A stretch of 64,000 nucleotides of DNA, taken from the IMG/VR virus record IMGVR_UViG_2898615884_000001, positions 20,097-84,096 of that record; one strand, written 5' to 3'. Source of the DNA: a virus. Its lineage: Duplodnaviria; Caudoviricetes. Below the pieces are notes generated by a model. It searched no databases, had not been told where the DNA came from, and saw only the letters and a program-made list of their open reading frames with translations. Every line of letters starts with the position of its first letter. Within the stretch, counting starts at the first letter, position 1. Below are positions 4,280-35,408 of the stretch, piece by piece. Position numbers and translations under genes: made by a program.

Positions 4280-4293
4280 CGGCGTGGCTCCTC

Positions 4294-4728: not shown

Positions 4729-4951
4729 CGCTCGCCGCGTCGATCATCCGCAGCACCTCTTGTGACTTTGCATCGACGGCTTGAGCCGCTTCGCCCAGGG
4801 CAGAGGAGAAGAGCCGCTGCGTCACCTCGGGTGTGCGCCCCCAAGCCCAGCCGCTACACAGGTCAGCCCATTCGCCATCGCCCACTCGCGCGCGGATGAC
4901 GAACTCGGCCCGCACCGGCGGCGGCACAGTGTGCGGTTCGGGGCGGGTCAT
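4721..4951 (-). CDS. Hypothetical protein
   Basis: TGATG coupling, 76 aa. Confidence 0.45.
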   Translation of the reverse strand: MTRPEPHTVPPPVRAEFVIRARVGDGEWADLCSGWAWGRTPEVTQRLFSSALGEAAQAVDAKSQEVLRMIDAASDG

Positions 4952-5322: not shown

Positions 5323-5386
5323 GGGGATGTCCCTTCTGTGGAGCGGCCCGGCAGCGTGACGGGGTCGCGCGCTGCCAGGCCGCGGC

Positions 5387-5758: not shown

Positions 5759-5771
5759 GTGTCCCAGCCCC

Positions 5772-6710: not shown

Positions 6711-6725
6711 GGTCTTCCTTTCCCA

Positions 6726-6767
6726 TGCGACAGCCCCCGACCCGGTGATGCTGGGCGGGGGCTGTAC
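6726..6767 (-). other. Intergenic stem-loop upstream of the capsid gene
   Basis: ACAGCCCCCG...CGGGGGCTGT 10-bp outer stem with an inner stem. Confidence 0.5.
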
Positions 6768-6790
6768 GGATGATCGTGACGGGGGCCGCC

Positions 6791-7177
6791 CTACAGGGCG
6801 ACGTAGCGGACCTTGGCGGCGTCGGCGGCGGTGTTGAGCGCGATTCCGACGATGGAGCGGGCGTCGTTGATGTCGCCTGCCGTGGCACCGGACGCGGCCG
6901 CCTTGGACGCGACCTTCCCTCCGGCTGCGGCGACGAGCTGGTCGCCGGCGGTGACGGAGCCGGAGCCGACCACTTCGTGCTCTGGGCCGCGCAGGTGGAT
7001 GGTGACGCGGGCCCCGGACGCGGCGTCCGTGGCGAACACACCGATGACCTTCGCCGATCCGGCCGCGGCCGGGCCGACGGTGCTGTCCCCCGACACGGCG
7101 GCCAGGGTGCCGCCGGTGACCGCCGCGGACGTGGTGAAGGATCCCTTGCTCTCGTAAACCGGGATGTAGTCGCCCAC
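6791..7177 (-). CDS. Capsid cement/decoration protein (DUF2190-like)
   Basis: 128 aa Gly/Ala-rich, VIGVFATDAASG...VTAGDQLVAAAGGKV. Confidence 0.75.
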   Translation of the reverse strand: MGDYIPVYESKGSFTTSAAVTGGTLAAVSGDSTVGPAAAGSAKVIGVFATDAASGARVTIHLRGPEHEVVGSGSVTAGDQLVAAAGGKVASKAAASGATAGDINDARSIVGIALNTAADAAKVRYVAL

Positions 7178-7180
7178 GGG

Positions 7181-11238: not shown

Positions 11239-11347
11239 GCATTCACCCCCTGACCTGCGTGTTTAGTTTTGTTCTGCGGCGCAGTGACGGCGGGATGCCC
11301 CGACCTCCCTTGCCCAGGGAGGTCAGGCGGTGATCGAGCTCAAGCGG

Positions 11348-12979
11348 TCACCAGTCCATCGACATGTAGTCGCCGGTGCGCGGCTCCGCCCCTGTGGAAG
11401 CCGTGTACGCCTGCCCGATCGCGCCGTCGTCCGCAGGTCCTGCTGTGCGGCGCTGGTCGACCTGGTCGGCGGTCTCCTGCGGCAGCCAGTGCGCCGCGAC
11501 CACCCGCGCCGCATAGGAGAGGGTGTCGACCTGGTCGTCGTGTGCCGCAGATGGAAACGCAGCCAACTCGTCGCACCACTCGTCCAGCCAGTCCGCTTCA
11601 GCCGGGAACCACACCCGGCCCGCCTTCAACCGGGACGTCGCCGGGACCGCGCGGGTGACCTTGTCGGTGTCCGCCGCTACCGGCTCAACCGGCAGTCCGG
11701 CCTTCGTCGCGTCGATCACCATCGTGGAGCTGATGAACGACTTCTCCACGAATACCGTGGCCAGCGCCCACCGAGAGACCAGAGGCCGGGCCAGGTCCCA
11801 GTGGTCCTCCTCGACCACGCGCTTCCGGGCGCGGTCCAAAAGGATCAGGTCACCGTCCGGGCTGATCGCCCACGCCGACACAACCGTGTAGTCCGCCGAC
11901 CGCTTCGTGGACGCGGCCAGATCGACCGTGGCCAATCGCCAGCAGTCATCCAGGAATACCGGCCGGCTGTCGAGGTCGACACGCCGACCATCGGCCGTGC
12001 CGTGCCTGCTCAGGTCGGCTGGCATCGGGTTCCAGTACCGGAAAGTCGAACGGCGGAACATGTTGCCTTCGGCGGCGACCGGGGTCTGCTGGTAGATGCT
12101 CCGCCACACGTACGGGGAGCGCACCTCTTGCAGCCCGTGGAAGTAGCCGGGCTTGCGGTCCTGGACGGAGACGAGTTCCTCGCCTGGGGCGCGGCCGAGC
12201 GGATCAACGCCGTCGGCAACCCACACCGTCTTCGCTCGGCCGTCAGCGCCCTTGATCTGGACGCCCTTGCCCGCGACCGCCGGGATCGACACGACCCGCC
12301 ACCGACCCGGCTCGCGTGTCACCAGCCGCCCAGCAAGGTCGTCGCAGTGCCAGCGCGTCATCATCAAGCACACCTTGAAGCGCGACGATCCTCGGGTTGA
12401 GCCGTTGGACTCCCACCAGTCCCAGGCGGCATCGCGGTAGGTCGCGGACTCTGCTTCGGCTCGACCGCGGAACGGGTCGTCAATGATCAGCACATCGACT
12501 TTTTCGCCGGTGATCCCGCCCGCGATCCCGGCGCATATGACGCCGCCGCCATCTTCGGTCTCCCAGTACCCGGCCGCCCGGGTGTCTTTCCTCAGCCGGA
12601 TCCCGAGCTGCGGGTTGTCAGCCGCGTCACGGCGGATGGCCTTGCCCCAGCGGAGCGCCTTGTTGTCGTTGTAGGAGACGATCCCGATGCGCAAGGTCTT
12701 GTCGTGCGCGAGAAGCCAGAGCGGAAACCTTCTGGATACTCTCTGTGATTTCCCCTCTTGAGGGGGGCAGTAGAGCTGGAGGCGGTCGGTGTCGCCGTCG
12801 GCGAGCTCGACCAGCTCGCGGTCGATGAGGTCGAGCGCGGCGGTCTGCCGGGTGGCGCGGTCGATCGCGCGGGCGAGCTGCCCGGGTGTCGACCACCGGC
12901 GGCCTCGGGGCGGGGGTGGCGGCTCGAAGTGCGCCAGGATCGCTGCGGCGACACCTTGGACGGGGTCGAGGACGGTCAT
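11348..12979 (-). CDS. terL: Terminase large subunit
   Basis: Walker A-like PPQEGKS, Walker B LIIDDP, nuclease VDLAAS...ADYT and HDDQVDTLS. Confidence 0.93.
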   Translation of the reverse strand: MTVLDPVQGVAAAILAHFEPPPPPRGRRWSTPGQLARAIDRATRQTAALDLIDRELVELADGDTDRLQLYCPPQEGKSQRVSRRFPLWLLAHDKTLRIGIVSYNDNKALRWGKAIRRDAADNPQLGIRLRKDTRAAGYWETEDGGGVICAGIAGGITGEKVDVLIIDDPFRGRAEAESATYRDAAWDWWESNGSTRGSSRFKVCLMMTRWHCDDLAGRLVTREPGRWRVVSIPAVAGKGVQIKGADGRAKTVWVADGVDPLGRAPGEELVSVQDRKPGYFHGLQEVRSPYVWRSIYQQTPVAAEGNMFRRSTFRYWNPMPADLSRHGTADGRRVDLDSRPVFLDDCWRLATVDLAASTKRSADYTVVSAWAISPDGDLILLDRARKRVVEEDHWDLARPLVSRWALATVFVEKSFISSTMVIDATKAGLPVEPVAADTDKVTRAVPATSRLKAGRVWFPAEADWLDEWCDELAAFPSAAHDDQVDTLSYAARVVAAHWLPQETADQVDQRRTAGPADDGAIGQAYTASTGAEPRTGDYMSMDW

Positions 12980-13315: not shown

Positions 13316-14992
13316 TCACCGCAGGTGTCCGGACAGGGCGCCGCGCACCGTCGCGGTCCCGCTGAGCTGGCCGGCGACGCGGGCGGTCCCGGCGAGGTCG
13401 GGCAGGGGCGGCACCCCGGGCAGGTGGGCGCTGACGGTGTCGGTCAGGGTGATCGTGTCGCTGGCCGGCCTGGTGAGGTGCCCTCCGGCGGACAGCAGGT
13501 CGGGCAGGGCTAGGAGGTCGGTGGCCGCTCGGGTGAGGTCGCTGGTCCGGGTCGGCGCGTCGGTGGTGGTGATGCTGTCGCCGGAGCCGCGGGCGGTGGC
13601 GGTGGAGCCGGCCACCGCGTCGAGGAGCGTCGCGGTGTCGGCCGCGGCGGCACCGCGCCCGGATGTGGGGGTGGCGGTGTCGCCGGCGGTGACCGTGTCG
13701 CTGCCGTCGCGTCCCTGGGCGCTGGCCGGGGAGGCGAGGTCGGTGGCGGTGAGGGTGTCGCCGGTCGGGCGCTGGTAGGTGACCTGGAGGTCGGTGGTGT
13801 CGGCTGCGGTGAGGGTGTCGGTCGCGGTCGCGCCCCGGCCGGTGCCGGCGGTGGCTTGGTCTGCCGTGGTTGTGGTGTCGCTGCTGGCGCGCGCCGCGGC
13901 GAGAGCACCGGCGGCGGTGTCGGCTGCGGCGGCGGAATCGGTGGCTGCACGTCCTGATGCGGTGGCCGCTGCGGCGGCGTCGGCGCCAGTGAGGTTGTCG
14001 CTGGCGATGAGGGTCGAGATCGTTGTCCGGGTAGCGGCGTCGGCGGTGGTCGCGGTGTCGGCCGCCGGGCGGGCGAGGACGACGGCCGCGGCGCAGCCGT
14101 CGGAAAGGTTGGCCGTGTCGCCGGTGGCGCGGGGGGCGGTGGCCTGCCGGGCGGAACTGTCGGCGACGGTCAAGGCGTCGGCGGCTGCCCTGGGCGCGGC
14201 GGCCGTGCGCGCGGCGGCGTCGGCGAGCGCCGCGGTATCGGTGGCCGCGCGGGCGGTTTGGACGGTGCGGGCAGGGCTGTCGGCCAGGGTGGCGGAGTCG
14301 GTGGCGGATCGGCTGGACGACCCGCCCCCTCCGGCGGCGAGGATGGCCAGGGACCAGGTGGTGACGCCGGACGAGGCGACGTTGCCGACCAGGTCTGGTG
14401 GGGTGACCGGGGTGCCGGAGGGGTTGGTGGCGGCGAGGCCGTCATCGGCGATGCCGGTGATGGTGCCGCCGGAGCCGAGCGCGAGGCTGTCGGAGTCGAC
14501 GCGTTTGGTCCACCCGCTGGTGGTGATGGCGGTGGACCCGGTGGACTGCCGTTCGCCGATCATGGAGGCGATCGCGCATCCGGCGGCCGTCGGGGTGACG
14601 GCGGGGCACGGGTGGCTGGTGACGGCGGACGCGCCCTCGTTGCGGCTGGTGATGGCGTTGACCGGGGTGGTGTTGTCGACGCCCCGGTAGACCGTCACGG
14701 AGAAGGTCTGCCGGTTGGTGCCGTTCATGGTCCCGGAGATGTTGCCGGACTCGCTGCCGGTGCAGACGCGGTAGTAGACGCGGGTGCGTAGCGACCCTTG
14801 GGAGGAGACGACCGCTGCGGCGGCGGCCGTCCAGCCGGATGGGTCGCTGGTGACGGTGTTGCCCGACGACTGCGACCAGATGAGCAGGGCCACGTCCCCG
14901 GACGCGGGCGTCGCCGACAGCGACGACCAGGCGAGGTTCAGGGTGGCGACATTCCCGCCGGCACTGCCGCCCCCGACGTAGGAGATCGCCAC
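13316..14992 (-). CDS. Fibre/minor structural protein with 15 x 20-aa repeats
   Basis: N-terminal beta domain (GDVALLIW...RVYYRV...VTVYRGVD), then R-x3-D-x5-D repeats. Confidence 0.65.
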   Translation of the reverse strand: MAISYVGGGSAGGNVATLNLAWSSLSATPASGDVALLIWSQSSGNTVTSDPSGWTAAAAAVVSSQGSLRTRVYYRVCTGSESGNISGTMNGTNRQTFSVTVYRGVDNTTPVNAITSRNEGASAVTSHPCPAVTPTAAGCAIASMIGERQSTGSTAITTSGWTKRVDSDSLALGSGGTITGIADDGLAATNPSGTPVTPPDLVGNVASSGVTTWSLAILAAGGGGSSSRSATDSATLADSPARTVQTARAATDTAALADAAARTAAAPRAAADALTVADSSARQATAPRATGDTANLSDGCAAAVVLARPAADTATTADAATRTTISTLIASDNLTGADAAAAATASGRAATDSAAAADTAAGALAAARASSDTTTTADQATAGTGRGATATDTLTAADTTDLQVTYQRPTGDTLTATDLASPASAQGRDGSDTVTAGDTATPTSGRGAAAADTATLLDAVAGSTATARGSGDSITTTDAPTRTSDLTRAATDLLALPDLLSAGGHLTRPASDTITLTDTVSAHLPGVPPLPDLAGTARVAGQLSGTATVRGALSGHLR

Positions 14993-24137: not shown

Positions 24138-25324
24138 GGTGCTCCGGTGATCGTCTGCTCGTGCATCCGCTCGCGCAGATGCTCGGGCGTGTGGTGGGTG
24201 TGCTGGTCGGCTGGTTCAGGTTCCCACCGGCCGGGGAGGGCGGGGGGTCGTTTGGCAAGGCGGGCGGCTTCGGACTCGGCGGCGATCTGGGCGAGGTGCT
24301 TCCTCGCGGCGGCGATGGTTTGGGCGACGGAGGGGCGGGGCCCGTCATGTTCGGGTTGCCGGTCGGGCGTGGCGGCGGCGAGCGCTTCGGCGACCGAGCG
24401 GCTGTCGGGCAGCGCGGGCCCGGTCGGGGTGCGGTCGTCGTACGGGTCGTCGTCGTCGTCCGGCGCGGTCGTGGTGGCGGTCGAGTGGAGCTGGACGGCC
24501 TCGACGATGTCGAGCAGATCGGTTTTGGGTGACCCGTCGGGGTGGACGGTCATCGACTCCATGTACTTCACGAGGTCCACGACTCGCGTGCCCGCGCGCC
24601 CCCGCACGACCTCGATCACGGCGGCGGCTTCCTCGTCGGTCAGTCCGTAGCGCTCGTGAAGCCAGCGGGTGCCTTGCCGGTCTCGCGCGCGCGTCGACTG
24701 ACTGATCGGTGTATCTGGTCGGTGGACCTGATCGGTGGGCGGACATGCTGCATGTCCGGTTGAGGCGTCAGGATGTCCGGTTGAGGTTCGCGTTTTGTCC
24801 GGTTGAGAATCCTCATCCGGACACTCATAGGTGTCCGGATGAGGCGCGGTCTCAACCGGACGTTCTTGGGTGTCCGCTTGAGACGGTTCGGCGGGCAGCG
24901 CTTCGGCCGCCATCTCGGGAAGTTCGCAGTCTCCCCACGCGGGCGCCAGGATCTCGGCGAGCCGCGCGAACACTGCGGCCGGGAACGTGGCGATGTAGAC
25001 GCTGGCGCGGGTCGTGCCGTCGCCGTTGCGGCCGCCGCGCTGCACGCACATCAGCCAACCGCCGGCGATCGCCTGGTCGAGATGCCTGCGCAGCGTCCGC
25101 TCCGTACCGCCCCGCGCGAGGACGAACCGGTGATACCCGGGGCGGCCCTGGGTGCCGTCGGGGTTCATGTACAGCGCGAGGACGCACAGGGTGTACCGGA
25201 CCTTCTCGGGCAGGTCGAGGCCAGCGATGTGCAGTGCCTTCTGCCAGATGAAGACTCCCCGGGCGCCGAGCAGCGCGGCCGGTACGGGTTCCGGCGCCGG
25301 AGCGGCACGCGGACTTTCGGGCAT
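24134..25324 (-). CDS. Replication initiator 1 (N-terminal winged helix, internal iterons)
   Basis: LCVLALYMNPDG...RPG...TERTLRRHLDQAIAGGWL; repeat-coded linker. Confidence 0.75.
   Translation of the reverse strand: MPESPRAAPAPEPVPAALLGARGVFIWQKALHIAGLDLPEKVRYTLCVLALYMNPDGTQGRPGYHRFVLARGGTERTLRRHLDQAIAGGWLMCVQRGGRNGDGTTRASVYIATFPAAVFARLAEILAPAWGDCELPEMAAEALPAEPSQADTQERPVETAPHPDTYECPDEDSQPDKTRTSTGHPDASTGHAACPPTDQVHRPDTPISQSTRARDRQGTRWLHERYGLTDEEAAAVIEVVRGRAGTRVVDLVKYMESMTVHPDGSPKTDLLDIVEAVQLHSTATTTAPDDDDDPYDDRTPTGPALPDSRSVAEALAAATPDRQPEHDGPRPSVAQTIAAARKHLAQIAAESEAARLAKRPPALPGRWEPEPADQHTHHTPEHLRERMHEQTITGAP
24753..24882. repeat. Iteron cluster (putative origin 1): TGTCCG(G/C)(T/A)TGAG x7
   Basis: Copies at 24753, 24774, 24796, 24832, 24871 (direct) and 24812, 24851 (inverted). 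Confidence 0.75.
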
Positions 25325-25449
25325 GCGAGGGACTCCCCAGGTCGAGGCAGGGGTGGGGGAAGCGACGACCCGGGGAGCGGGCGTCGGATGGGACGGGCCT
25401 ACGGGGGCCGGAGGATCAGGCGGGAGCGCCGCCGTCGGGCAACGGCATG

Positions 25450-25854
25450 TCAGGCGTCGGAGTCGGTTTCCGCCGCGCGCTCTTCCTCAGCGATCTCGGC
25501 GCCGGCCTTGATGAGGCGGGGCCGGTGGATCATCGTGTTGGTCGGCCGCTTGGCCTTGCCGGCGAGGCAGGGACCGCTCTCCACTTTGCAGCTGGGGCAC
25601 GGCAGGGTCAGCGCACGCGCGCGGATGCGGGCCTTGCGCTCTTCCCAGGCGGCGTCGGCGCGGTCGATGAGTTCCTGCGGCGGTCGTTCCGGGAGTTCCG
25701 CGCCGGGGCGGCGCATGAAGTAGGCCCAGAGCGCCTCGACGAGCTGGCTGCGGGTCGTGCCCATGGCCTCGGCGATGAGTTCGCCGGGCTCCCAGTTGTC
25801 GTCCGAGAGGGTGACGGACCGGTGTTGGCGACCGGGTTGGGGCTGTCTGGGCAC
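25450..25854 (-). CDS. Ribbon-helix-helix-like regulator with C-terminal zinc finger
   Basis: HRSVTLSDDNW...AEAMGTTRSQLVEALWAYF; CPSC...C...H..R. Confidence 0.65.
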   Translation of the reverse strand: MPRQPQPGRQHRSVTLSDDNWEPGELIAEAMGTTRSQLVEALWAYFMRRPGAELPERPPQELIDRADAAWEERKARIRARALTLPCPSCKVESGPCLAGKAKRPTNTMIHRPRLIKAGAEIAEEERAAETDSDA

Positions 25855-25869
25855 GAACCGGAGTTTCTC

Positions 25870-25955
25870 AGGTCCACGTGTGCTTATCAACGCGCTGCCT
25901 TTCCGTGCGGTGAGTTGAGGTCCACGTGGACCTAAGTTAAGGTCCACGTGGACCT
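25870..25955. promoter_or_regulatory. Operator palindromes AGGTCCACGTGGACCT
   Basis: Perfect 16-bp palindromes at 25918-25933 and 25940-25955, partial copy at 25870-25880, between divergent genes. Confidence 0.8.
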
Positions 25956-25987
25956 AATCGCAACCCCGACATGCCAAGGGAGATCAG

Positions 25988-26794
25988 ATGCCCCGCACCC
26001 TCGTTGCCGCCGCCCCCGGCCCGGCGCGTCTCGACATCACCGTCCCTTTCGGACACGTCAAGATCGCCGCCGCGCCCGGCTGCGCCACCGCCACCCTGAC
26101 CCTGACCGCGACCACCACCGACCCCGCGCTCGCCGACCTCATCGACCGCGCCACCCTCCACACCACCGACCACGGCCTCGTCGTCGCCGTCCCCAAACTC
26201 CCCGGCACCGCCACCATCCGCACCAACGGCAACTTCGGCATCCAGGTCCAGGCCAACCACGGCAGCGGCACCTTCATCGCGGGCGACTACCACGGCGCGA
26301 ACGTCATCAACGGCCAGCACATCCAGCCCGGGGCCCCGCCCCGCGCGGTATCCGGGGACATCGAGGTCGTCGCGCTCGTACCGCCCGGCAGCGACATCGA
26401 GGTCGACGGGAACGCCGCCGACCTGAGCGCCAAGGGCCGCCTCGGCTCTGTCACCGCCCACGCCAGTTCGGGGGACGTGGACGTGGACACCGCCGACACC
26501 CTGACCGTCCGCACGACGTCTGGTGACGTCCATGGCGCCGAGGTCACCGGCCGGACCGACATCACCACCACCGCCGGCGACATCAGCATCGCTAGGTTCG
26601 GCGGCACGGGCGACTTCGTCACATCCTCGGGAGACGTCACCGTCGCCGCGATTCAGCGGGGTAACGTCCGCGCCCGCACCTCAACCGGGGACATCCGCGT
26701 CACTGCCGCGCCTGGTATCGCCGAGGGGTTGACGGTCTGGGCCCGGAGCAGCGTGGGGTGTATCCGCGTTCCGGACGGGGCGGCTGCGGGCTGA
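25988..26794 (+). CDS. DUF4097-like beta-strand repeat protein
   Basis: Repeated xTxSGDVx units (ASSGDVDV, TTSGDVHG, TTAGDISI, TSSGDVTV, TSTGDIRV). Confidence 0.8.
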   Translation: MPRTLVAAAPGPARLDITVPFGHVKIAAAPGCATATLTLTATTTDPALADLIDRATLHTTDHGLVVAVPKLPGTATIRTNGNFGIQVQANHGSGTFIAGDYHGANVINGQHIQPGAPPRAVSGDIEVVALVPPGSDIEVDGNAADLSAKGRLGSVTAHASSGDVDVDTADTLTVRTTSGDVHGAEVTGRTDITTTAGDISIARFGGTGDFVTSSGDVTVAAIQRGNVRARTSTGDIRVTAAPGIAEGLTVWARSSVGCIRVPDGAAAG

Positions 26795-26844
26795 CCTAGG
26801 CGTTCTGCGTTTTCTCACGTCGTTGCGGATTTCTTGGAGGACTT

Positions 26845-28218
26845 GTGCGGGATACCGCAGAGCAGGCTCCCGCCGGGGCCGAGGCCGACCCGCCACCCGC
26901 CCCACCCCCCGAACACCACAACCCCGCGCCCGCGGAGGACATCGAGCGGACGCCACAGCCGGCCGAGGACGCGCCCCGTCCCGCGCAGGTGGTCGCCGGA
27001 CCCTCGGCAGCGATGGCCGCCGAGGTCGCGACCGCCGTGCCCGCCGCGCTGTTCCACGCCGGGGGTTGGATCGGTCTGGCCGCCGGCGCGGCCGCCGTGG
27101 TCGGGACGGGCGCGGCCGGGGTCGCCGGGCGCCGCCGGGTGGGTACTTCAGGGCGGGCGTGGACGCGGACCCGGACGTGGTCGACGGGCGGCCGGTCGAG
27201 CGCGGCGAAGATGCGGATGCCCGGCACAGGCTCGACGCGAGCGAGTGGGAGCCGGACGCCGCAGTCGTTCGGACGCTCACCCGCCAAGGGCGGCGCCACG
27301 GGCGGCCGGGCCGCTGGCATGCGCGCGGGCGGGGTCGCGGGACGGGCAAGGGCCGGGCGGCTCGGATCCGCGGCACGCCGCGCCACGGCCAGCCCAGCGG
27401 TGAGCGGCCCCGCCCGAGCAGCCCGCCGCGCCACCGCCGCGACCGGCCGAGCCGCGCGCTCGGGATCCCGGAGCACCCGACGCGGCATGGACCACGCGAC
27501 GACCGCCGCCATCCGGAACGCCCGCGCCGCCCGCGCCGCACACCGCGCCGTCGCCGGCGGCGGCACCGGACGCGACGCCGCACGCGCCGCACGCGCATCC
27601 CTGAAGGATTCCCACGCCCACCCCACCCGGATCCGGTGGCGGCGCCTCGCCGGGGCGGGCCTGTGGAGCGCGGCGGCCTGGACCTACGGGCGGAGCTACA
27701 CCGCGAGCCGGACACTCGCCCGGCGGGCGATGGCACGCCTACGCGGCCAGGACCCGGCGGACACCGACGCCGAGCGCGACCAGCCGCGGATCGAAACAAA
27801 AGTGAACCGGCCGACCGACCCGGCGGCCAACACCAGCAGAGGAGAAGACATGACCCGACGTGAGAGCGGAGGTGGCGTGCCGTCGTTCGTCGCAACGGCG
27901 CAGGAGCATGCCGAGTCCCTCGCCCGGTACGAGCCGCCGCCCGGCGCGGGCGGGATGGTGCAGATGTACCACGACATCGAGATGCTGCCCGACGCGCTGG
28001 CGTGGATCGCCCAAGGGTTCGAGCGGATGGCCACACGGTGCCGTAAGGAACTGCCATTGCACCCCGCGATCAGTGAGCTGGTCGTTGAGCTAGCGAAGAC
28101 CCAGACCCGCATGGCGTCGGTCGCGGCGGAGATCAAGCCCGCGATCACCAAACTGCACGAGGAGGACCTGAAGCGCCACGAAGCGCCGCGTCCCAGCGAA
28201 GAGCGGTGGAACGTCTGA
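26845..28218 (+). CDS. TraA-like plasmid transfer protein (TM segment, Arg/Gly-rich linker, conserved C-terminal domain)
   Basis: SD GGAGGA before GTG; C-terminus LHEEDLKRHEAPRPSEERWNV; TGATG-coupled to traB. Confidence 0.6.
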   Translation: MRDTAEQAPAGAEADPPPAPPPEHHNPAPAEDIERTPQPAEDAPRPAQVVAGPSAAMAAEVATAVPAALFHAGGWIGLAAGAAAVVGTGAAGVAGRRRVGTSGRAWTRTRTWSTGGRSSAAKMRMPGTGSTRASGSRTPQSFGRSPAKGGATGGRAAGMRAGGVAGRARAGRLGSAARRATASPAVSGPARAARRATAATGRAARSGSRSTRRGMDHATTAAIRNARAARAAHRAVAGGGTGRDAARAARASLKDSHAHPTRIRWRRLAGAGLWSAAAWTYGRSYTASRTLARRAMARLRGQDPADTDAERDQPRIETKVNRPTDPAANTSRGEDMTRRESGGGVPSFVATAQEHAESLARYEPPPGAGGMVQMYHDIEMLPDALAWIAQGFERMATRCRKELPLHPAISELVVELAKTQTRMASVAAEIKPAITKLHEEDLKRHEAPRPSEERWNV

Positions 28219-30425
28219 TGGGCGGCGTGGATTGGCGGTGGCGGCACGGGACGGTGTCCGGGCCCTTGCACGCGACGATCGCGCTGGCGACCGCCTACGA
28301 AGTCGGGACGCTGCCCGTCCTGGACGTCTCCCCGGAATGGGTCCTGATCGGCGGCGCGACCGCGGCCGGGGTGACGAGCTGGCGCGCGGCCCACGACGGC
28401 CGCTCCTGGCTCGGCCTCGGCTACCGGATCGCAGGCATCAGCGGCAGCACCCTCTGGCTGGCGCAGGCCGTCACGACCGGGTGGACGGCCACGCTCGGGT
28501 GGACGCTCGCGGCGGGCGCGGTCACCGCCGCCGGGCTTGCGCGCCCGATCCGCGCCCGCGACCGCGTCGTCGCCGAACGGCACGCCGCACAGGAAGCCGC
28601 GGCGTCCGTAGCCGCCGTGGACGCGGCCGAGCAGGAACGCTTGACGGGCATCGCCGGGGAGTGGGTCACCCGGATCGAGCGGGTGACCCAAATCGTGCTG
28701 CGCCCCCTCGACCCCCGCACCGGGAAGCGGCCACCAGTGCAGCAAGTCGTCGTCGCCGTCGAGCACTGGATGTTCCCCGGCCCCGGCGGTGTCGAGCGGT
28801 GCACCGGCTACACCCTGGAACTGGTCCTCCCGACCACGGGCGTGACGTGGCAGACGCTCTCCAATTACCAGGACAACCTCGCCGCGGCCGCCGACCTGCC
28901 CCAGGGGTGCGGGGTCGAGATCGGGCCGGGCAGGTCACGGCGCCGCGCGCTCATCGAGGTGTCCATCGTCGATGCGCTCCGCGACGACATCGCCCTCCCA
29001 CTGCCCACCGAACCCCGCACGATCAACAACCCGATCCCCGTCGGAGTGGTCCGCAACGGCGCGCAGGCGGACGTGCCGCTGCGCTACAGCTGCGCCGTCC
29101 TGGTCGGCGCGACCGGGTCGGGGAAGAGCAACGAGCTGCAGACGATCGTGGCCGGGCTGCTGTCCTGCCATGACGTGCTGGTCCTGGTGATCGACTACAA
29201 CGGCGGCGGCGTCGCGTTGCCGTGGCTGTCGCCCTGGGTCGACGGGACGATCGCCCGGTCCCCGATCCTGTGGGTGGCCGACAACGAACACGAGGCCATC
29301 ATGATGTGCGACTGGCTGATCGCCGCGATCGAGCACCGCAAACGGGCCTACCACGCCGCGAACCAGGCCCGTGACGACGACAAGCTCGCCGCAACCCCCG
29401 CCACCCCGCAGCTGGTGCTGGTCACCGACGAAGCGGGCGCGACTGGCCGCGAGGTCACCAAACGGATCGCGCAGATCTCCGACCGCGGACGCGCGGCGGC
29501 GGTGCGGACGGTGACGTGCGCGCTGCGGGCGCTGTCGGAGTACATCCCGACCGAGGTCCTCGCCCAGGCGCAGGTCCGCATCGGCATGAAGGTCAACGAC
29601 CGCAAGGAGCTGGGCTACCTCTACGACTGGGCGGGGGGCCGGGGCGGGCCGTCGCCGGAGGACGCGCCGCACACCGGCTACGGGCATGTGCGGTCGGGGC
29701 AGGAGCCGCCGCGGGTGTTCAAGGGGTATCGGACGTCGCCGTCGATGATCCGTGCGGTGGCGGTGGCGCAGGATGCGTGGCGGCCGGAGCTGGATGAGGT
29801 GACGTTGCGGATGTCGGCGGAGTGGCAGCGGGTGTTCGAGGAGCGGTGGCAGCGCTCGGCGCATCTGCTCGCGGCCGCCGGTGGACGAATGCCCGTCCCG
29901 TCGGCGGGTGGTGGAAGCCCTGAGCGGCGGGAGCGGCAGGCCCCGACGGGGCGGGGTGCGCTCCCGCCGACGCCCCCGGACGGACCGGACGCGGGGTCGA
30001 AGTTCGCCGGGCTGAACGACGCGCTCGCCGACCTGGACGCCGCCGCCGAACGGCTCCGCAACGCCACCCCGGACACGCCCGCCGGGCCGCGCGACGACGC
30101 CGCCGACGCCGCCGCGTTCGAGGCGATCGTCGCCTACGAGGTCGTCGTCCCCGAACTCGTCGTGCGCGTCCTCGCTGCGATGGGCTCCGCCGAGCGGATG
30201 CACACCCGGCAGATCGCCGAGAAGATCGGCAGCCGCGCCGAGTCGCTCGGGGGGCTGCTGTCCCAGCTCGACATCCGGCCGCTCAAGTCGGACTTCACGG
30301 TGGACGGGCGCCGCGGCCGCGGGTACGAGCGCGCGGAGGTCGAGGCGGCCGCCGAGCGGATCCGGTCGGGTGAGCTGGTGCCGCCGGAGGAGGTCGCGCG
30401 GTGGCGCCCGGACGCGCCGGCCTGA
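28218..30425 (+). CDS. traB: FtsK/SpoIIIE-like conjugative DNA translocase TraB
   Basis: N-terminal TM helices, Walker A GATGSGKS, Walker B LVLVTDE, GRAAAV, C-terminal winged helix. Confidence 0.88.
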   Translation: MGGVDWRWRHGTVSGPLHATIALATAYEVGTLPVLDVSPEWVLIGGATAAGVTSWRAAHDGRSWLGLGYRIAGISGSTLWLAQAVTTGWTATLGWTLAAGAVTAAGLARPIRARDRVVAERHAAQEAAASVAAVDAAEQERLTGIAGEWVTRIERVTQIVLRPLDPRTGKRPPVQQVVVAVEHWMFPGPGGVERCTGYTLELVLPTTGVTWQTLSNYQDNLAAAADLPQGCGVEIGPGRSRRRALIEVSIVDALRDDIALPLPTEPRTINNPIPVGVVRNGAQADVPLRYSCAVLVGATGSGKSNELQTIVAGLLSCHDVLVLVIDYNGGGVALPWLSPWVDGTIARSPILWVADNEHEAIMMCDWLIAAIEHRKRAYHAANQARDDDKLAATPATPQLVLVTDEAGATGREVTKRIAQISDRGRAAAVRTVTCALRALSEYIPTEVLAQAQVRIGMKVNDRKELGYLYDWAGGRGGPSPEDAPHTGYGHVRSGQEPPRVFKGYRTSPSMIRAVAVAQDAWRPELDEVTLRMSAEWQRVFEERWQRSAHLLAAAGGRMPVPSAGGGSPERRERQAPTGRGALPPTPPDGPDAGSKFAGLNDALADLDAAAERLRNATPDTPAGPRDDAADAAAFEAIVAYEVVVPELVVRVLAAMGSAERMHTRQIAEKIGSRAESLGGLLSQLDIRPLKSDFTVDGRRGRGYERAEVEAAAERIRSGELVPPEEVARWRPDAPA

Positions 30426-30631
30426 CCCCCACACCCCCTCCCACACCCGGGGTGTGGGAGGGGGTGTGTCAGGGGTGTGGGACCCACACCCACCCCCACA
30501 CCCCCCACAGCCCGCTGACCTGCGTAAACCACACCCCCACACCCCCCACACCCCTCCGTGCGAGGGGCCCCTTCCCCGGGCCAGGGGACCGCGCACACCC
30601 CCCGGCCGGGAGGGGTGTGGGGGGTGTGGGA
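30426..30631. repeat. clt-like cis-acting transfer locus (CCACACC repeats)
   Basis: 11 exact CCACACC copies (7 forward, 4 reverse) plus near matches, directly after traB; includes a near-perfect palindrome at 30430-30468. Confidence 0.7.
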
Positions 30632-30650
30632 GACCGAGAGGACACACACG

Positions 30651-31532
30651 ATGAGCACGCAGAAACGCCCCGGCCTGATCTGGGCGTGCGCGGTCCTGAC
30701 CATCGCAGCCGCCAACCAGCTCCTCTGGAACCTGTGGCACGCCTTCGACACCGGCATGCCGCACCCGCTGGCCGTCGCGACCGGCGCAGTGCCCGTGCTG
30801 CTCGCGCTCGGCACCTCCGCGCTCGCGGCCAGGGTCCGGTGCGGCAACGTGCAGCGGACCCTGACGTACGGCGTGATGCTCGCGGCGATCGGGATCTCGA
30901 TCCTGGCGCAGTACGACCTGCTGATGCACTGGATGGGGAGCAAGGCGGTCGCGGTGTTGTTCCCGACCGTGGGCGACCTGGCGACGCTGATCGCTCTGCA
31001 CGTGTTGATCGCCGACCCGGTCCCGGTGCGGGTGGCGGCACCGGTCCGTACGAAGGAGAAGACCCGTACGACGACGGTCCGTACGGCGCAGCCGGTGATC
31101 TGTGAGAGGTCGATCGGGACGCCGTACGTACGGGCGCCGCAGGGCGTTCTGCGGGCCGTACGGAACGAGCAGTACGTGCCGGAGCGTACGGGCGAAGAGA
31201 CCCGTACGCCGGAGCCGCGTACGCCTTCCGGCGAGCCCCGTACGGCCGAACACGCGGCCCGTACGCGCGCCGTGGTGTCCGCCCGTACGACCCGTACGGA
31301 CCAGGTCAGCGCACCCGTACGGGGCGTACGGGAAGGCCGCGCGCACTGGGTCGAGGTGCTGGCCGACGAGATCCGTACGGCCCGTACGGAAGGCCGTACG
31401 TGGGAACCGGCGTACGTCGAGCTGGAGGCCCGTACGGGGTGGGGCCGGTCGTGGTGCGAGAAGACCGTACGGGCCGCGCGCGAGGCGGCCGAGGAACGTA
31501 CGGGCACCCGTACGGGCACCGACGACGCCTAG
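30651..31532 (+). CDS. Spd/DUF2637-like membrane protein with repeat linker and C-terminal HTH
   Basis: Four N-terminal TM segments, Arg-Thr repeat linker, AYVELEARTGWGRSWCEKTVR. Confidence 0.7.
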   Translation: MSTQKRPGLIWACAVLTIAAANQLLWNLWHAFDTGMPHPLAVATGAVPVLLALGTSALAARVRCGNVQRTLTYGVMLAAIGISILAQYDLLMHWMGSKAVAVLFPTVGDLATLIALHVLIADPVPVRVAAPVRTKEKTRTTTVRTAQPVICERSIGTPYVRAPQGVLRAVRNEQYVPERTGEETRTPEPRTPSGEPRTAEHAARTRAVVSARTTRTDQVSAPVRGVREGRAHWVEVLADEIRTARTEGRTWEPAYVELEARTGWGRSWCEKTVRAAREAAEERTGTRTGTDDA

Positions 31533-31549
31533 CCAAACGGGGCCGTACG
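31047..31549. repeat. Dense array of palindromic CGTACG sites
   Basis: 24 copies counted by eye in about 500 bp, mostly as CCGTACG. Confidence 0.85.
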
Positions 31550-31561
31550 AGGCGGCCCCGT
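31537..31561 (+). other. Intergenic hairpin
   Basis: ACGGGGCCG-N7-CGGCCCCGT. Confidence 0.5.
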
Positions 31562-31585
31562 ACACACCAAGCGAAGGAGAAGGCA

Positions 31586-31951
31586 GTGCCGACGATCATC
31601 ACCTTGCCGGTCGAGATCTCAGAGGACGTCGTCCGCGCGGCGGCGCAGGGCCGAGTCCGGCAGTGGGTCGGGCCGGAGATCGCCGAGGACGTCGTACGCG
31701 CCGTCTTGGCCGACGTCCTGGGAGAGGAGAGCGACGGCCAGCTGCCCGAGCAGTCGAGGCCGGACGCGGACGAGGACGCCGTGGCGGTGTTGATGCGCAA
31801 GTACCTCGGAGTGGACCCGGCGACCGTGAGCGTGCGGAAGGTCCGGGCGGACCTGGGCGGCGCTCGGCACGACCGAGCGGTGCGCGTGAAGGACCTGTGG
31901 ACGGCGAGGTACGCGGCGGCGTTCGGCGGCCGCGCGACCGTACCGGCCTGA
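31586..31951 (+). CDS. Small protein with C-terminal HTH (Spd-like)
   Basis: SD AAGGAG; VSVRKVRADLGGARHDRAVRVKDLW. Confidence 0.6.
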   Translation: MPTIITLPVEISEDVVRAAAQGRVRQWVGPEIAEDVVRAVLADVLGEESDGQLPEQSRPDADEDAVAVLMRKYLGVDPATVSVRKVRADLGGARHDRAVRVKDLWTARYAAAFGGRATVPA

Positions 31952-32009
31952 ATCTCTGAACGGACCGGCCGTCGAGCCGGTGGAACCGATCATCGAAAGG
32001 ACAGGAACC

Positions 32010-32282
32010 ATGCCCCCCACAACCCAGCAGCCGGCCGCTTGGCCGGAGGGCGTCATCGCCCGGTACCTCACCGTCGGCGGCGCGACGGTCGATCTGATGC
32101 GCAGCCGGGCCGGGATCACGGCGGTCTGCCGCGGCTGCCCCGTCGCGCACGCCACGCGGGCGTTCGAGAGGGCGGGGTCGGTCCGGCAGGACGGCGGCAA
32201 GCGGGCGACGGAGCAGGCGCAGGAGTGGGCGCAGACGCATGCGGAGCGGTGCCGCGCCATGCCCCGCCCGGACAGCGAGTGA
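32010..32282 (+). CDS. Small Cys/His mobile-element protein
   Basis: WPEGVIARYLTVGGATVD...CRGC...WAQTHAERCRAMP. Confidence 0.65.
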   Translation: MPPTTQQPAAWPEGVIARYLTVGGATVDLMRSRAGITAVCRGCPVAHATRAFERAGSVRQDGGKRATEQAQEWAQTHAERCRAMPRPDSE

Positions 32283-32286
32283 CGTC

Positions 32287-32718
32287 GTGCCCGCGAAGAC
32301 GCTCGACATCCGCGCCTACACACCCGCCACCGCGCCACCCTGGGCCGCCGAGATCGTCACCGCGATCCGGGGAGGCGACCTCGCCAAGGGCAGCCGCCTG
32401 TTCCGCGAGGCAGCCTCGACGTCCGGTATCGAGCGCGCGGTCTACGCGGTCGCGGCGGTGGTCGAACCCGGCGCCGGTCAGCTCACGGTCGGCCCGGGGC
32501 CGCTCGTGTACGGCAACCCGCTGCGGACCGGCTACTGCTGGCGCTGCGGGACGTGCCTGGCCACCTTCCGCCGGGGCGGCCCGGCGCCTACCGCGGGCGT
32601 GAACTACAAGACCGCCCAGAGCGCGCGCGGCGCCGCAGTGAAGCACGACCGCGAGGCGCACGGGGGTCGCTCGACGGTGCACGAGCTGAGCCCGAGGGGG
32701 CGTGACCTGCGGTGCTAG
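32287..32718 (+). CDS. Hypothetical zinc-binding protein
   Basis: WRCGTC...KHDREAH; overlaps the next start. Confidence 0.5.
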   Translation: MPAKTLDIRAYTPATAPPWAAEIVTAIRGGDLAKGSRLFREAASTSGIERAVYAVAAVVEPGAGQLTVGPGPLVYGNPLRTGYCWRCGTCLATFRRGGPAPTAGVNYKTAQSARGAAVKHDREAHGGRSTVHELSPRGRDLRC

Positions 32719-33614
32719 GGAAGACGCACGCGCTGAGCGGCGCGATGATGTTCGGGGTGCTGGCGGTCCCGGCCGCGCCGGTCGCGCACCTGTCCCTCCC
32801 CGAGCTCGCCCTCGGCACCGTCGTGTGTGCGGGTGCGGCGATGCTCCCGGACATCGATCACCGCGAGTCGCATGTGGCGCGGACGCTCGGGCCGCTGTCC
32901 CGGGGGCTCGCGTGCGCGGTCGCGTGGGTCGCCGGCGGGCACCGCAGGGGTGTGCACTCGCTCGTCGGGGTGGCGGTGGTCGCGCTGCTGGCGTTCCTCG
33001 GCGCCGCGCTCCGCTCGGGGAGCACGAGCTGGGCGGTGGCCGGGATCGCCCTGGCCGCCGTCCTCGCGGGCTCCGGGCTGCTGGCCGGGATGGCGTGGCC
33101 GGGTGACCGGCGGCGCGGCCGACGCGTCTACCCCGAACGCTGGCACGGACCCGCGGCCGCCGGGGTGTTCGGCGTCGTCGCCCTGGCGCTCGCCGTCGGC
33201 GCGGCCGTGGACCCGCACGCGACCGGGACCGGCGTCCTCGCGGTCCTGCTCGTCCTCACCCTTGCGTCGGCGGCGAGGGTCTTCCACATCCGCCGGTGGA
33301 CGCGCCTGCGGACCGAGGTGGACGACCTGCTGCCGATCCCGGTCACGTTCGTCCTACTCGTCGGCGACACGAACCTCCGCGTGGTGCCCTTCGCGGTCGT
33401 CCTCGGCGTCATCGTCCACATCGCCGGAGACATGGCCACCGTCGGCGGCTGCCCGCTCGGATGGCCGTGGTCGCTGACCGCGCGGGGGCCTCGCGCGTTC
33501 AGGACGAACTCGCCCATCGAGCGGGGGCCGGTGACGTGGGCGTGCATGGTGATCTTTGCGGTGACCGTGTTCTGGAACAGCGGGATCGCGAACGCCATCA
33601 CCAGGCACGGGTAG
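32712..33614 (+). CDS. YdjM-like membrane metal-dependent hydrolase
   Basis: KTH, LPDIDH, HRRGVHS, HIAGD motifs; multiple TM helices. Confidence 0.88.
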   Translation: MLGKTHALSGAMMFGVLAVPAAPVAHLSLPELALGTVVCAGAAMLPDIDHRESHVARTLGPLSRGLACAVAWVAGGHRRGVHSLVGVAVVALLAFLGAALRSGSTSWAVAGIALAAVLAGSGLLAGMAWPGDRRRGRRVYPERWHGPAAAGVFGVVALALAVGAAVDPHATGTGVLAVLLVLTLASAARVFHIRRWTRLRTEVDDLLPIPVTFVLLVGDTNLRVVPFAVVLGVIVHIAGDMATVGGCPLGWPWSLTARGPRAFRTNSPIERGPVTWACMVIFAVTVFWNSGIANAITRHG

Positions 33615-33627
33615 CGGCGCGGCGGCG

Positions 33628-33658
33628 ACGGCCCCGAACCACACCGGTTCGGGGCCGT
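33628..33658. terminator. Hairpin between convergent operons
   Basis: ACGGCCCCGAACC-ACACC-GGTTCGGGGCCGT, 13-bp stem. Confidence 0.65.
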
Positions 33659-33679
33659 TCGCATGCTCGGCGTCAGCGC

Positions 33680-34189
33680 CTACGGAAGGATGGCGAGCGA
33701 CGTCGCCTGCGCCTGCGCCCAGCTCTGCTCACGAATCTCTTCCGCCCTTCTACTGACACAGACCTCCGACGACTCACCCGGCAGGCGCTCGGTCAAGCAG
33801 TACGTGCGAGCCTCGGCGTGCGCTGCCCTGTCCACATCCCTGGACGCCTCTCTGGCGGCGACGAGGGAGACGGCCACGGGGACCGCCGCAGCTACGAACA
33901 CGAGTCGCCTCCTGTGCCGGACCGCGATGACGCCCAGGCAGGCCGCGGTGAGCACGACCGCGACGACGAACTTGAGCGGGTCGCCGGGGATGTTGTCGAT
34001 CAGCCCCGTCCATCTCCGTCGTTCGGCGGCTCGCGTGTCCGCGTATCGGCGCCGGGCCGACCAGCCGGCGAGCCGATACGCCGCCCATCCCAGGATCGCG
34101 GATACCTGACCGGCGATGACACCGGCCGTGGCCCCGATCGCGATCGCGGTGGCCGTGACGCTGGACAGGTCTAACAATTTCCTGATCAT
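33680..34189 (-). CDS. Membrane protein
   Basis: Three hydrophobic segments; ATGA coupling. Confidence 0.55.
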   Translation of the reverse strand: MIRKLLDLSSVTATAIAIGATAGVIAGQVSAILGWAAYRLAGWSARRRYADTRAAERRRWTGLIDNIPGDPLKFVVAVVLTAACLGVIAVRHRRRLVFVAAAVPVAVSLVAAREASRDVDRAAHAEARTYCLTERLPGESSEVCVSRRAEEIREQSWAQAQATSLAILP

Positions 34190-34581
34190 GGACTGCTCCC
34201 AGGGGTATGCCGGATGCGGGGCCGCTGGACGTGGAGGTGCTCGACCGTGACCAGGCGGCCGGACTCCCGTAGCCGCGCCGCGAGGAGCTCCGCTACAGCG
34301 ACCGACCGGTCATGCCCCTGCGAGCAGCCCAACCCGATCGACGCGGTGCCCGGCGCGCACGCTCGGGCGTAGAGCCGGTCCAGCAGTTCGGCAGCGGCGG
34401 AGTCGGCGAGCACGACCTCTCGGACCGCCTGGTCCCGCCCATCCACCGGGCTGACCTCTAACAGCGCGAGGATGCGGTGGTAGCCGGCCGGGTCGGCGAG
34501 CTGGTGGCGGAGGTCCTCGACATGGTCGGCGGGCGGGGGCGGGCCGTGAAGGTAGCCGAACGAGACCAGGTGGACGGTCAT
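34186..34581 (-). CDS. Stand-alone RapZ C-terminal-like domain protein
   Basis: VHLVSFGYLHG...DLR..L.DP...GC-x-x-GH-x-RSVAVAELL. Confidence 0.8.
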   Translation of the reverse strand: MTVHLVSFGYLHGPPPPADHVEDLRHQLADPAGYHRILALLEVSPVDGRDQAVREVVLADSAAAELLDRLYARACAPGTASIGLGCSQGHDRSVAVAELLAARLRESGRLVTVEHLHVQRPRIRHTPGSSP

Positions 34582-34802
34582 GTCTTGGTGTCCTCCTGGA
34601 GGTCGGTGCGGGCCCCCTGGCCAGGTCGTTGATGGGCGAGGATCGTGGCCGGCCTCCAGACCGGTGAACGGCCGAACTGCTTGTCCTCGGGTGGGAGTTC
34701 GCCGCGGGCTCGGTAGCGGCGCGCGGAGGCGTACTTGATTCCGTAGTGGTCGGCGACGTCTTGGAGTGTCCAGTAGTCGGCGTCGGGGTCGGGCTTGGTC
34801 AC
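34578..34802 (-). CDS. HTH regulator (AlpA/excisionase-like)
   Basis: YWTLQDVADHYGIKYASARRYRARGELPPED..FGRSPVW. Confidence 0.75.
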   Translation of the reverse strand: MTKPDPDADYWTLQDVADHYGIKYASARRYRARGELPPEDKQFGRSPVWRPATILAHQRPGQGARTDLQEDTKT

Positions 34803-34885
34803 GGGTGCGGGCTCCCATCGTCTACTTGATGGGGACAAAGTCTAGGCCGTGGGTTGTGGCGGTCCCTCAAAGCTACTTCGTCTCT

Positions 34886-34932
34886 CTGATGTTGACAAGG
34901 TTGCTCGCCTCTCCTAACCTTGTCTACATCAG
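34886..34932 (+). promoter_or_regulatory. Housekeeping-sigma-type promoter overlapped by an operator inverted repeat
   Basis: TTGACA(34892)-17 bp-TAACCT(34915); CTGATGTTGACAAGGTT-N13-AACCTTGTCTACATCAG. Confidence 0.8.
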
Positions 34933-34955
34933 GACGACAAAGACTGGAGGGTGAC

Positions 34956-35408
34956 ATGGCGAAGCGGACCACCACCAAGACGGCCCACTGCCGCCGCTGC
35001 CGCGCCCTCCTCACCAACCCCCGCTCCGTCGCCGAAGGCATCACCCGCCCCTGCCTCCGCAAGGAGCGCGCAGAGGCCGCCGCGCTCGCAGAAGCCCGCG
35101 CCTCCGTCGTCGAGGTCGCCGTCAACGCCATCGACACCACCGCCTTCAAAAACCCGCAGGCCGTCAAGGACAAGGCCGTCCAGCTCATCCTCGACGGCGC
35201 GATCGTCCCCACCCGCTTCGACGGCGTGTACCTCGCCACCGGCTCCGACGGCGTGTCGACCTACCTCACCGACACCGTCGAGCGGTCGTGCACCTGCAAA
35301 GCGGGCCAGCGCCTCGGCCGCTGCAACCACCTGATCGCGGGCGACGCGCTCGACCTGCTCGACAACGGCGCCTTCGCCAGCACCACCGCCATCCTGCTCG
35401 CCGCCTGA
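34956..35408 (+). CDS. DUF6011-like plus SWIM zinc-finger protein
   Basis: CRRCRALLTNPRSVAEGITRPC; CTCKAG...CNH. Confidence 0.7.
   Translation: MAKRTTTKTAHCRRCRALLTNPRSVAEGITRPCLRKERAEAAALAEARASVVEVAVNAIDTTAFKNPQAVKDKAVQLILDGAIVPTRFDGVYLATGSDGVSTYLTDTVERSCTCKAGQRLGRCNHLIAGDALDLLDNGAFASTTAILLAA

Follow-up and report, generated by a model that had tools for sequence, protein, structure and literature searches.

A TraB-type translocase gene and repeat arrays in an apparently intact, integrated siphovirus of Actinomadura

An eight-gene operon encoding a TraB-type translocase

We analyzed a 64,000-nt stretch of DNA from a tailed virus (IMG/VR record IMGVR_UViG_2898615884_000001, positions 20,097 to 84,096; hereafter the window), in which an operon predicted to encode a plasmid-type DNA-transfer cassette lies among prophage genes. 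The window corresponds to G000:C6:174499–238498 in a 9.16-Mb source genome (37 contigs, roughly 72% guanine plus cytosine (GC)). Source names attached to the closest homologues identify the host genus as Actinomadura, not Streptomyces; they comprise A. opuntiae (G067), A. meridiana (G031) and Actinomadura sp. 21ATH (G078). Because of the high genomic GC, genes were called by GC at the third codon position, revealing eight plus-strand genes at 25988–33614 flanked by minus-strand phage genes. A preliminary description of this DNA had proposed an eight-gene rightward operon between two phage regions; both elements of that proposal were recovered, with PHROGs matches placing phage genes on either side.

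Gene 3 (28218–30425, plus strand; 735 amino acids (aa); alternative GTG start at 28206) is predicted from profiles, motifs and a structural model to encode a TraB-type FtsK/SpoIIIE translocase of double-stranded DNA (dsDNA), laid out as N-terminal helices (residues 14–157), a motor (174–555), a disordered linker and a winged helix (646–716). The protein matches FtsK_SpoIIIE (PF01580) at 30.7–31.9 bits and phrog_31069, ‘FtsK/SpoIIIE-like protein’, over almost its entire length (residues 10–726 on profile positions 31–738 of 742; E 2e-111, 374.6 bits). The NCBIfam model plasmid_TraB (NF041214) was matched partially, over residues 203–470, at 42.2 bits relative to a cut-off of 800 bits. Walker A (GATGSGKS) and Walker B (LVLVTDE) motifs are in place, and G297, G302, K303, D404 and E405 are invariant across 21 translocase homologues.

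In an AlphaFold model of the translocase (predicted local distance difference test (pLDDT) 82), the best Foldseek matches of the alpha/beta motor are the FtsK motors 6t8b and 2iut (E about 1e-15). The predicted winged helix adopts a helix–strand–helix–helix–hairpin–helix fold (pLDDT about 90); when the C-terminal 101 residues were folded alone (pLDDT 85), their neighbors were nearly all winged-helix DNA binders of the MarR, ArsR and ScpB types (E 0.05–0.4). At the N-terminus the model places helices at residues 14–30, 39–58, 64–87 and 91–157, with three moderately hydrophobic segments (Kyte-Doolittle about 1.2). A sequence search of the Protein Data Bank returned a weak EssC match for the whole translocase and nothing meaningful for its C-terminal domain. 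The initial assignment as an FtsK-like TraB with both Walker motifs and a winged helix thus holds. Of the two proteins to be checked against hidden Markov models, that of gene 3 (TraB) matched FtsK_SpoIIIE, phrog_31069 and, weakly, plasmid_TraB, and that of gene 2 (TraA) matched no named family.

An ATPase of this kind might alternatively serve a defense or exclusion system built around a HerA/FtsK-like enzyme. PADLOC did return a match, a weak P-loop similarity of the cassette to mad8 only (20.7 bits), and HerA defense ATPases appear low in the list of related folds. However, the top structural matches are FtsK motors, defense partner proteins are absent, and the combination of N-terminal helices, winged helix and cis-located repeat array (described below) is the architecture of TraB, making a defense function very improbable.

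Two unique repeat arrays accompany traB

The whole 206-bp gap between the traB stop codon and gene 4 (30426–30631) is taken up by an array of 11 CCACACC heptamers, 7 in forward and 4 in reverse orientation, which includes a palindrome with 19-nt arms. Within 30428–30630 lie 10 of the 17 copies of CCCACACC in the window, and 0 of 100 shuffles reached 17. This array (array 1) is the sole such cluster in the 9.16-Mb genome, and its motif and layout are repeated directly after traB in A. meridiana, A. opuntiae and Actinomadura sp. 21ATH; the clt-like repeat locus of the preliminary description is thereby borne out. Among these relatives, nucleotide identity of array 1 amounts to 64–72%, equal to that of the traB coding sequence.

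A second array (array 2; 31046–31549) overlaps the 3′ half of gene 4, encoding the C-terminal half of its product, and packs 24 CGTACG hexamers, most of them CCGTACGG, into about 500 bp. Its motif has 39 matches in the window, 33 of them within the array (shuffles average 10). Relative to the gene 4 reading frame, 16, 2 and 6 of the 24 hexamers fall in frames 0, 1 and 2, respectively, and CGT accounts for 16 of the 28 arginine codons in the array 2 region versus 5.7% elsewhere. Hexamers in all three frames, together with these forced CGT codons, suggest that it is the DNA, not the protein, that is under constraint. Array 2, too, is unique in the genome; it is present in A. meridiana and Actinomadura sp. 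21ATH and, as the variant CCGTACCG, in A. opuntiae.

In known clt loci, short repeats, both direct and inverted, are clustered at the 3′ end of tra or close to it, e.g. nine copies of CCGCACA[C/G][C/G] in pJV1 or TGACACC repeats in pWTY27 (PMC3583192), and TraB proteins recognize 8-bp repeats in clt (PMC4447253). By virtue of its position and motif, array 1 appears the better clt candidate of the two.

A third repeat array lies at window positions 48325–48478, where 7 of the 11 window copies of ACCCGATG cluster within 154 bp, four of them spaced 11–12 bp. It sits in an 808-bp gap between a gene end at 48203 and a gene start at 49012 and looks like iterons, hence a possible phage origin, or like an operator cluster.

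Conserved core, accessory genes and control of the operon

Only genes 2 to 4 and the repeat arrays are conserved in the relatives. Gene 2 (26845–28218, plus strand; 457 aa), whose stop codon overlaps the traB start (TGATG), encodes a partner protein whose N-terminal part is basic and of low complexity, with one to two hydrophobic segments; about 90 aa at its C-terminus make up a conserved helical domain. Searches of Pfam (up to E 5), NCBIfam and PHROGs gave no useful match to the protein. The C-terminal domain is nevertheless kept upstream of the translocase in plasmid pSQ10 (E 1e-11), in gp101 of phage Hiyaa (E 2e-15), at 16 of 26 IMG/VR loci and in the three Actinomadura relatives, and ‘TraA-like’ is best taken as a label of convenience for this conserved partner.

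Gene 4 (30651–31532, plus strand; 293 aa) encodes a membrane protein with four hydrophobic helices within residues 8–125. Its nearest Atlas clusters are DUF2637 (0.87 by features, TM-score 0.65 by structure), and neither the protein nor two of its homologues matched Pfam at E up to 5. The four-helix membrane protein expected at this position was therefore found, with its proposed Spd identity reduced to a lead.

Genes 1 and 5 to 8, all on the plus strand, are not conserved in the relatives. Gene 1 (25988–26794; 268 aa) is the predicted DUF4097 member (toastrack, LiaG-like; PF13349, 45.5 bits) and gene 8 (32712–33614; 300 aa) the predicted YdjM-family membrane-bound metal-dependent hydrolase (PF04307, 71.8 bits). 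Between them, gene 5 (31586–31951; 121 aa) contains an internal 21-aa repeat, gene 6 (32010–32282; 90 aa) has a 44% match on contig C3 of genome G089, and gene 7 (32287–32718) encodes 143 aa. Pfam (E up to 5) and PHROGs detected neither a family nor a helix-turn-helix (HTH) in genes 5 to 7, leaving the HTH genes of the preliminary description unsupported. With five of the eight genes unconserved and a TraR-type GntR repressor absent, calling the operon complete was an overstatement.

In the divergent promoter gap 5′ of gene 1, an operator-like pair (25913–25956) is formed by two 22-bp tandem units, each with the 16-bp palindrome AGGTCCACGTGGACCT, and a half-site lies at 25870–25882. A zinc-finger gene occupies 25450–25854 in divergent orientation. 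The exact 14-mer core GGTCCACGTGGACC occurs twice in the 9.16-Mb genome, both times in this pair. All three relatives have two palindromes of the same GGT-N8-ACC form just 5′ of the partner gene, with different inner bases; we take such palindromes to resemble operators of GntR/HutC regulators. Having its own promoter with two unique palindromic operators, the operon is probably regulated separately from the main phage transcripts. Scanning for sigma-70 promoters and terminators was uninformative on DNA of such high GC.

Further candidate control elements and genes were noticed next to the operon. An inverted repeat with 27-nt arms (34876–34942) contains TTGACA, lies just 5′ of a plus-strand gene (34956–35408; DUF6011-like) and is likely another operator or promoter. 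Convergent with the operon are two adjacent minus-strand genes, an unusual phage cargo, for a stand-alone RapZ C-terminal domain protein (34186–34581; PF22740, 65 bits) and a small membrane protein (33680–34189).

Elsewhere in the genome, Tra-type PF01580 matches occur in open frames of 450–620 aa at C33:370808, C22:2670, C15:39570 and C4:144284. Owing to integrase matches within about 5 kb (C33, C15, C4) and GntR matches within about 3 kb (C33, C22, C15), these loci look like classical AICEs (integrative and conjugative elements of actinomycetes) that coexist with the TraB-bearing prophage.

The cassette recurs in related Actinomadura prophages

Close TraB homologues were sought in 103 other genomes of the genus and found in at least three (a floor), those of the relatives named above, at 64, 57 and 51% identity in the genome search and 61, 55 and 48% in tblastn alignments. 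In each of the three, partner gene, traB and array 1 follow in the same order. A gene 4 homologue comes next in A. meridiana (49%) and A. opuntiae (63%, N-terminal part); in Actinomadura sp. 21ATH only the repeat-bearing C-terminal part of gene 4 was matched, and presence of the gene is uncertain. Homologues of early genes flank the cassette on one side and replication or virion genes on the other. In the A. opuntiae prophage, collinearity extends through the tail, head and early genes (40–78% identity); the A. meridiana prophage shares the early genes, and the one in Actinomadura sp. 21ATH is more distant. Of the synteny that the preliminary description had suggested looking for in other actinomycete prophages, partner gene and traB are present, together with array 1, in the same slot in three prophages of this genus.

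Two further prophages, in G079 and on G089:C3, have the same virion genes (60–80% aa identity) and lack the cassette. By this sequence comparison the cassette is an accessory mosaic module of the non-structural region, neither a one-off insertion nor essential. Such a distribution is also what one would expect of a captured plasmid or AICE remnant (a moron) that perhaps mobilizes DNA, such as host chromosome beside the integrated clt, or is decaying and gives the phage no transmission route; the opposite strand relative to the phage genes, the operators of its own and the PHROGs class of the translocase (‘moron, auxiliary metabolic gene and host takeover’) fit that view as well. Yet every part is intact, and TraB remains 44–65% identical over about 20 homologues, in which the catalytic residues do not vary. 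Four diverged prophages have retained the two arrays as well as the operator pair, and partner gene and translocase turn up together in 16 of 26 viral contigs. Since these features together indicate selection within phage genomes, we regard a mere remnant as quite unlikely.

G089:C3 is itself a separate 84,435-bp contig in a three-contig genome, combining the virion module with absence of the TraB cassette. Its ends were searched for a terminal overlap and none was found; it may be an extrachromosomal prophage or a phage-plasmid.

The surrounding element is a single 88.7-kb insertion

The borders of the prophage were obtained by comparison with empty sites. The host gene at C6:148848–149876 and the acyl-CoA dehydrogenase gene (C6:238642) are direct neighbors in five relatives, and the insertion therefore spans C6:149921 to C6:238634, about 88.7 kb. 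An imperfect 16-bp attachment (att) repeat marks its ends, attL (TATTGGAGGAAGGGAC) at window positions -24577 to -24562 and attR (TATCGGTGGAAGGGTC) at 64121–64136, just outside the window. No exact repeat of at least 15 bp is shared by the two element ends, and the att core emerged only through the empty-site comparison. A tRNA scan of window and flanks was negative, so that attB is not a tRNA gene; the integration site is an intergenic promoter region. The tyrosine integrase of the whole element (62600–64000, plus strand; 466 aa; PF00589, 83 bits; phrog_1, 206 bits) is encoded beside the att site.

PHROGs matches assign a virion module to the minus strand at 2–12979, comprising the large terminase (11348–12979), portal (8860–11238), head protease (7181–8863), major head protein (5772–6710) and the start of the tape measure gene (2–1357); genes for Dit, minor tail proteins and the endolysin follow left of the window. 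Minus-strand genes left of the operon further match a replication O-like protein and a polymerase exonuclease subunit, and those at 37–61 kb match early functions, namely a protein resembling exonuclease VIII, a pair of methyltransferases and a number of PHROG families with no assigned function. Every frame is open among the integrase, replication, terminase, portal, protease, major head, tape measure, tail and endolysin genes, and the size class is matched by the collinear A. opuntiae element (about 83 kb) and by G089:C3 (84.4 kb), which has the same virion genes. Judged by gene content, the view of an apparently intact, integrated temperate siphovirus is supported: a complete complement of genes for head, tail and lysis goes together with one integrase, one att pair and an empty site in five relatives, in line with the integrase/att-type prophage initially proposed.

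Might the operon instead be an independent integrative element, i.e. an AICE or an integrative and mobilizable element, that inserted into the prophage? Its strand is opposite to that of the flanking phage genes, and GC reaches 0.75 at 26–29 kb versus about 0.67–0.71 in adjoining DNA. Against this, the 88.7-kb insertion contains no second PF00589 and no PF07508 (serine) recombinase, direct and inverted repeats flanking the operon do not exceed the shuffled expectation, the same slot is used in three prophages with homologous flanking phage genes, and the empty-site comparison yields one insertion with one att pair. With a lone recombinase, flank repeats at chance level and a slot shared by relatives, this explanation is largely refuted, and we give it hardly any weight. 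TrwC relaxase was likewise not found anywhere in the genome, agreeing with the original statement that a second integrase, a relaxase and a boundary repeat are missing. The sequence supports the TraB-array cassette as a resident module of the prophage rather than a bounded second element.

Two other regions of the prophage stand out. Between the terminase region and upstream genes, a 558-aa open reading frame (13316–14992, minus strand) has an unusually high second-position GC of 0.70; it matched no PHROG and found a weak partial match on G089:C3 only. At the attL end, beyond the lysis genes, C6:150481–160677 holds about 10 kb of small plus-strand genes, including one for a 399-aa HTH_31 protein; the region is without homologues in the A. 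opuntiae prophage and is probably cargo.

Translocase relatives in actinophages and plasmids

At the nucleotide level, megablast of 25000–34600 against phage and plasmid collections gave zero matches. At the protein level, tblastn matched the translocase to 12 phage records, all from hosts of the genera Streptomyces, Thermobifida or Saccharomonospora, out of a library that included hundreds of Mycobacterium, Gordonia and Arthrobacter phages. The three host genera are mycelial. Identity was 34–35% for Hiyaa, Spocter, Galactica and Keanu, 32% for P1312 and 29% over 48% of the query for ZL12. Homologues in these sequenced actinophages (the Hiyaa group, P1312 and ZL12) imply that such genes can belong to phage genomes. 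In addition, 26 IMG/VR contigs encode relatives at 25–35% identity, and 40 plasmid records match at 26–38.5% (tblastn). The best plasmid match is Tra of Nocardiopsis pSQ10 (34% over 719 aa); pSQ10 has the partner domain too, and its Tra stop codon is directly followed by a CGTTAC/GTAACG array. A literature search for papers on Hiyaa or pSQ10 found none.

The restriction to phages of these three genera would fit equally well if the translocase acted inside one mycelium, as an FtsK-like segregation or development factor that, instead of passing DNA to other hyphae, moves or clears phage or host DNA at sporulation or vegetative septa or secures inheritance of the prophage or of the replicating genome by spores. 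The motor fold is that of FtsK; phage ftsK-like genes have been read as means of manipulating host development (PMC10117723, PMC13587820), and DNA segregation was the role proposed by the authors who described P1312 (PMC4569894). In contrast, the nearest full-length relatives outside phages are Tra proteins of small plasmids (pSQ10, Frankia, Streptomyces), not chromosomal FtsK; the FtsK of the host itself (C2:57380) scores 230 bits on PF01580 compared with 31.9 bits for the prophage translocase; and a dedicated cis array right after the gene is the arrangement of plasmid clt. A role confined to one mycelium therefore appears rather unlikely.

A putative virion-independent route between hyphae

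We favor the interpretation, with a probability of roughly 50%, that the stretch holds a plasmid-type TraB DNA-transfer cassette, resident in an apparently intact temperate siphovirus, which would provide a virion-independent route between hyphae or compartments. After excision or in the course of replication, the winged helix would let TraB hexamers attach to one of the two arrays. The hexamers, aided by the membrane protein, would then drive the circular phage dsDNA through hyphal membranes or septal cross-walls; once in the recipient, the phage DNA would be inserted at attB by the integrase, or the lytic cycle would continue. In favor of this mechanism, the array 1 motif is kept in four prophages though TraB is only 48–61% identical (tblastn). 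Virion-independent spread is plausible, and hyphal transfer is the best-supported reading of the cassette, drawn wholly from homology and anatomy; mobilization of host DNA by the prophage TraB would be pure conjecture.

Several points weigh against transfer between hyphae. A circle of 88.7 kb is far larger than the classical substrates of TraB. By sequence, the translocase is homologous to plasmid_TraB in the motor and yet scores so far below the equivalog cut-off as to be a non-member. The SpdB identity of gene 4 (DUF2637/SpdB-like) is a lead only. No match to GntR (PF00392; TraR/Kor type) exists within the element (C6:149921–238634), whereas at least three other Tra loci of the genome, those on C33, C22 and C15, do have one nearby. 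Finally, the prophages of G079 and G089:C3, whose early regions differ, do without the cassette despite having the same virion genes, from which it follows that the cassette is dispensable for the phage cycle.

More generally, phages of mycelial actinomycetes, temperate and perhaps also lytic ones, might travel by two routes, as virions and as naked dsDNA pumped from hypha to hypha and through septal cross-walls by a phage TraB acting on phage clt arrays. This generalization is tentative, and we would put its chances below even. If it were true, the ‘FtsK-like’ genes of actinophages would be conjugation or spreading genes, and such prophages would be functional phage–AICE hybrids able to lysogenize receptor-less hosts and possibly to mobilize the adjacent chromosome.

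Should the cassette work as it does in plasmids, a tailed phage could spread and form lysogens with no need of particles, evading resistance at the receptor level and gaining access to every compartment of a mycelium. The boundaries between phage, plasmid and AICE as categories would then fall away in actinomycetes, and the recurrent, little-understood ‘FtsK-like’ actinophage gene, now taken for a manipulator of host development, would be read differently. Handles for testing these ideas are offered by the two unique arrays, the winged helix, the operator pair and natural relatives that have or lack the cassette.

As to novelty, the idea of such a combination is not new, being preceded by pZL12, P1312, the Hiyaa group and phrog_31069; what stands of the initial claim is an integrated integrase/att lineage with a documented TraB-array-operator cassette. 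At the sequence level, this prophage lineage is new, as is the evidence for a wide occurrence of the partner-plus-TraB pair among actinophages. The observation is stronger than first stated: there are two arrays and an operator pair, and four prophages conserve them.

Comparison with known transfer systems

The closest functional parallels are the TraB/clt plasmids of Streptomyces (pSVH1, pIJ101, pJV1, pWTY27) and pSQ10. They share with the prophage a single FtsK-like translocase with an N-terminal helical, putatively membrane-associated region, a motor and a C-terminal winged helix. In plasmids and prophage alike, short repeats form a cis-located array where the gene ends or directly behind it, and CCGCACA[C/G][C/G] of pJV1 is similar to the CCACACC of the prophage (PMC3583192). 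Four hydrophobic helices in the product of a neighboring membrane-protein gene, recalling SpdB2 (PMC4447253), are a further likeness. Unlike in these plasmids, the prophage cassette resides on an 88.7-kb integrated tailed phage, has no GntR-type TraR, is accompanied by the larger CCGTACG array inside the membrane-protein gene and lacks an spd operon recognizable by hidden Markov models.

pZL12, the plasmid form of ZL12, likewise unites virion genes and a TraB-type translocase in one genome, the two translocases being distantly related. Reported to persist as a free plasmid (its ParA/ParB are cited in PMC4487206), it differs from the present element, which is integrated by a tyrosine integrase between an att pair. 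As cited in PMC3583192, transfer of pZL12 requires the tra gene and two of its neighbors.

Among actinophages, the translocases of Hiyaa, Spocter, Galactica, Keanu and P1312 are 32–35% identical to that of the prophage and share the full-length phrog_31069 match; they are annotated merely as FtsK-like or DNA segregation proteins. In Hiyaa, gp101 holds the partner domain just 5′ of the translocase. However, in the 400 bp after the Hiyaa translocase any 7-mer occurs at most three times, the top counts (4–5 copies) lying elsewhere in the Hiyaa stretch, and the virion genes of Hiyaa are unrelated, with the closest major head proteins (44%) in Gordonia phages. P1312 was isolated and propagated as a lytic phage; the proteins associated with its virions were analyzed, and its genome encodes an integrase-type recombinase (PMC4569894). 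Thoma et al. have suggested a possible role for actinophage Spd homologues in the spread of phage DNA (PMC4447253).

AICEs, finally, resemble the prophage in being chromosomal and in having an integrase, a replication function and an FtsK-type Tra; like them, it would leave the chromosome, move as dsDNA and integrate anew (PMC2440964, PMC3218068). They measure about 11–17 kb (pSAM2 10.9, pMEA300 13.3 and SLP1 17.3 kb; PMC2440964) and have no virion genes, whereas the prophage extends over 88.7 kb with head, tail and lysis genes and occupies an intergenic promoter region rather than a tRNA gene.

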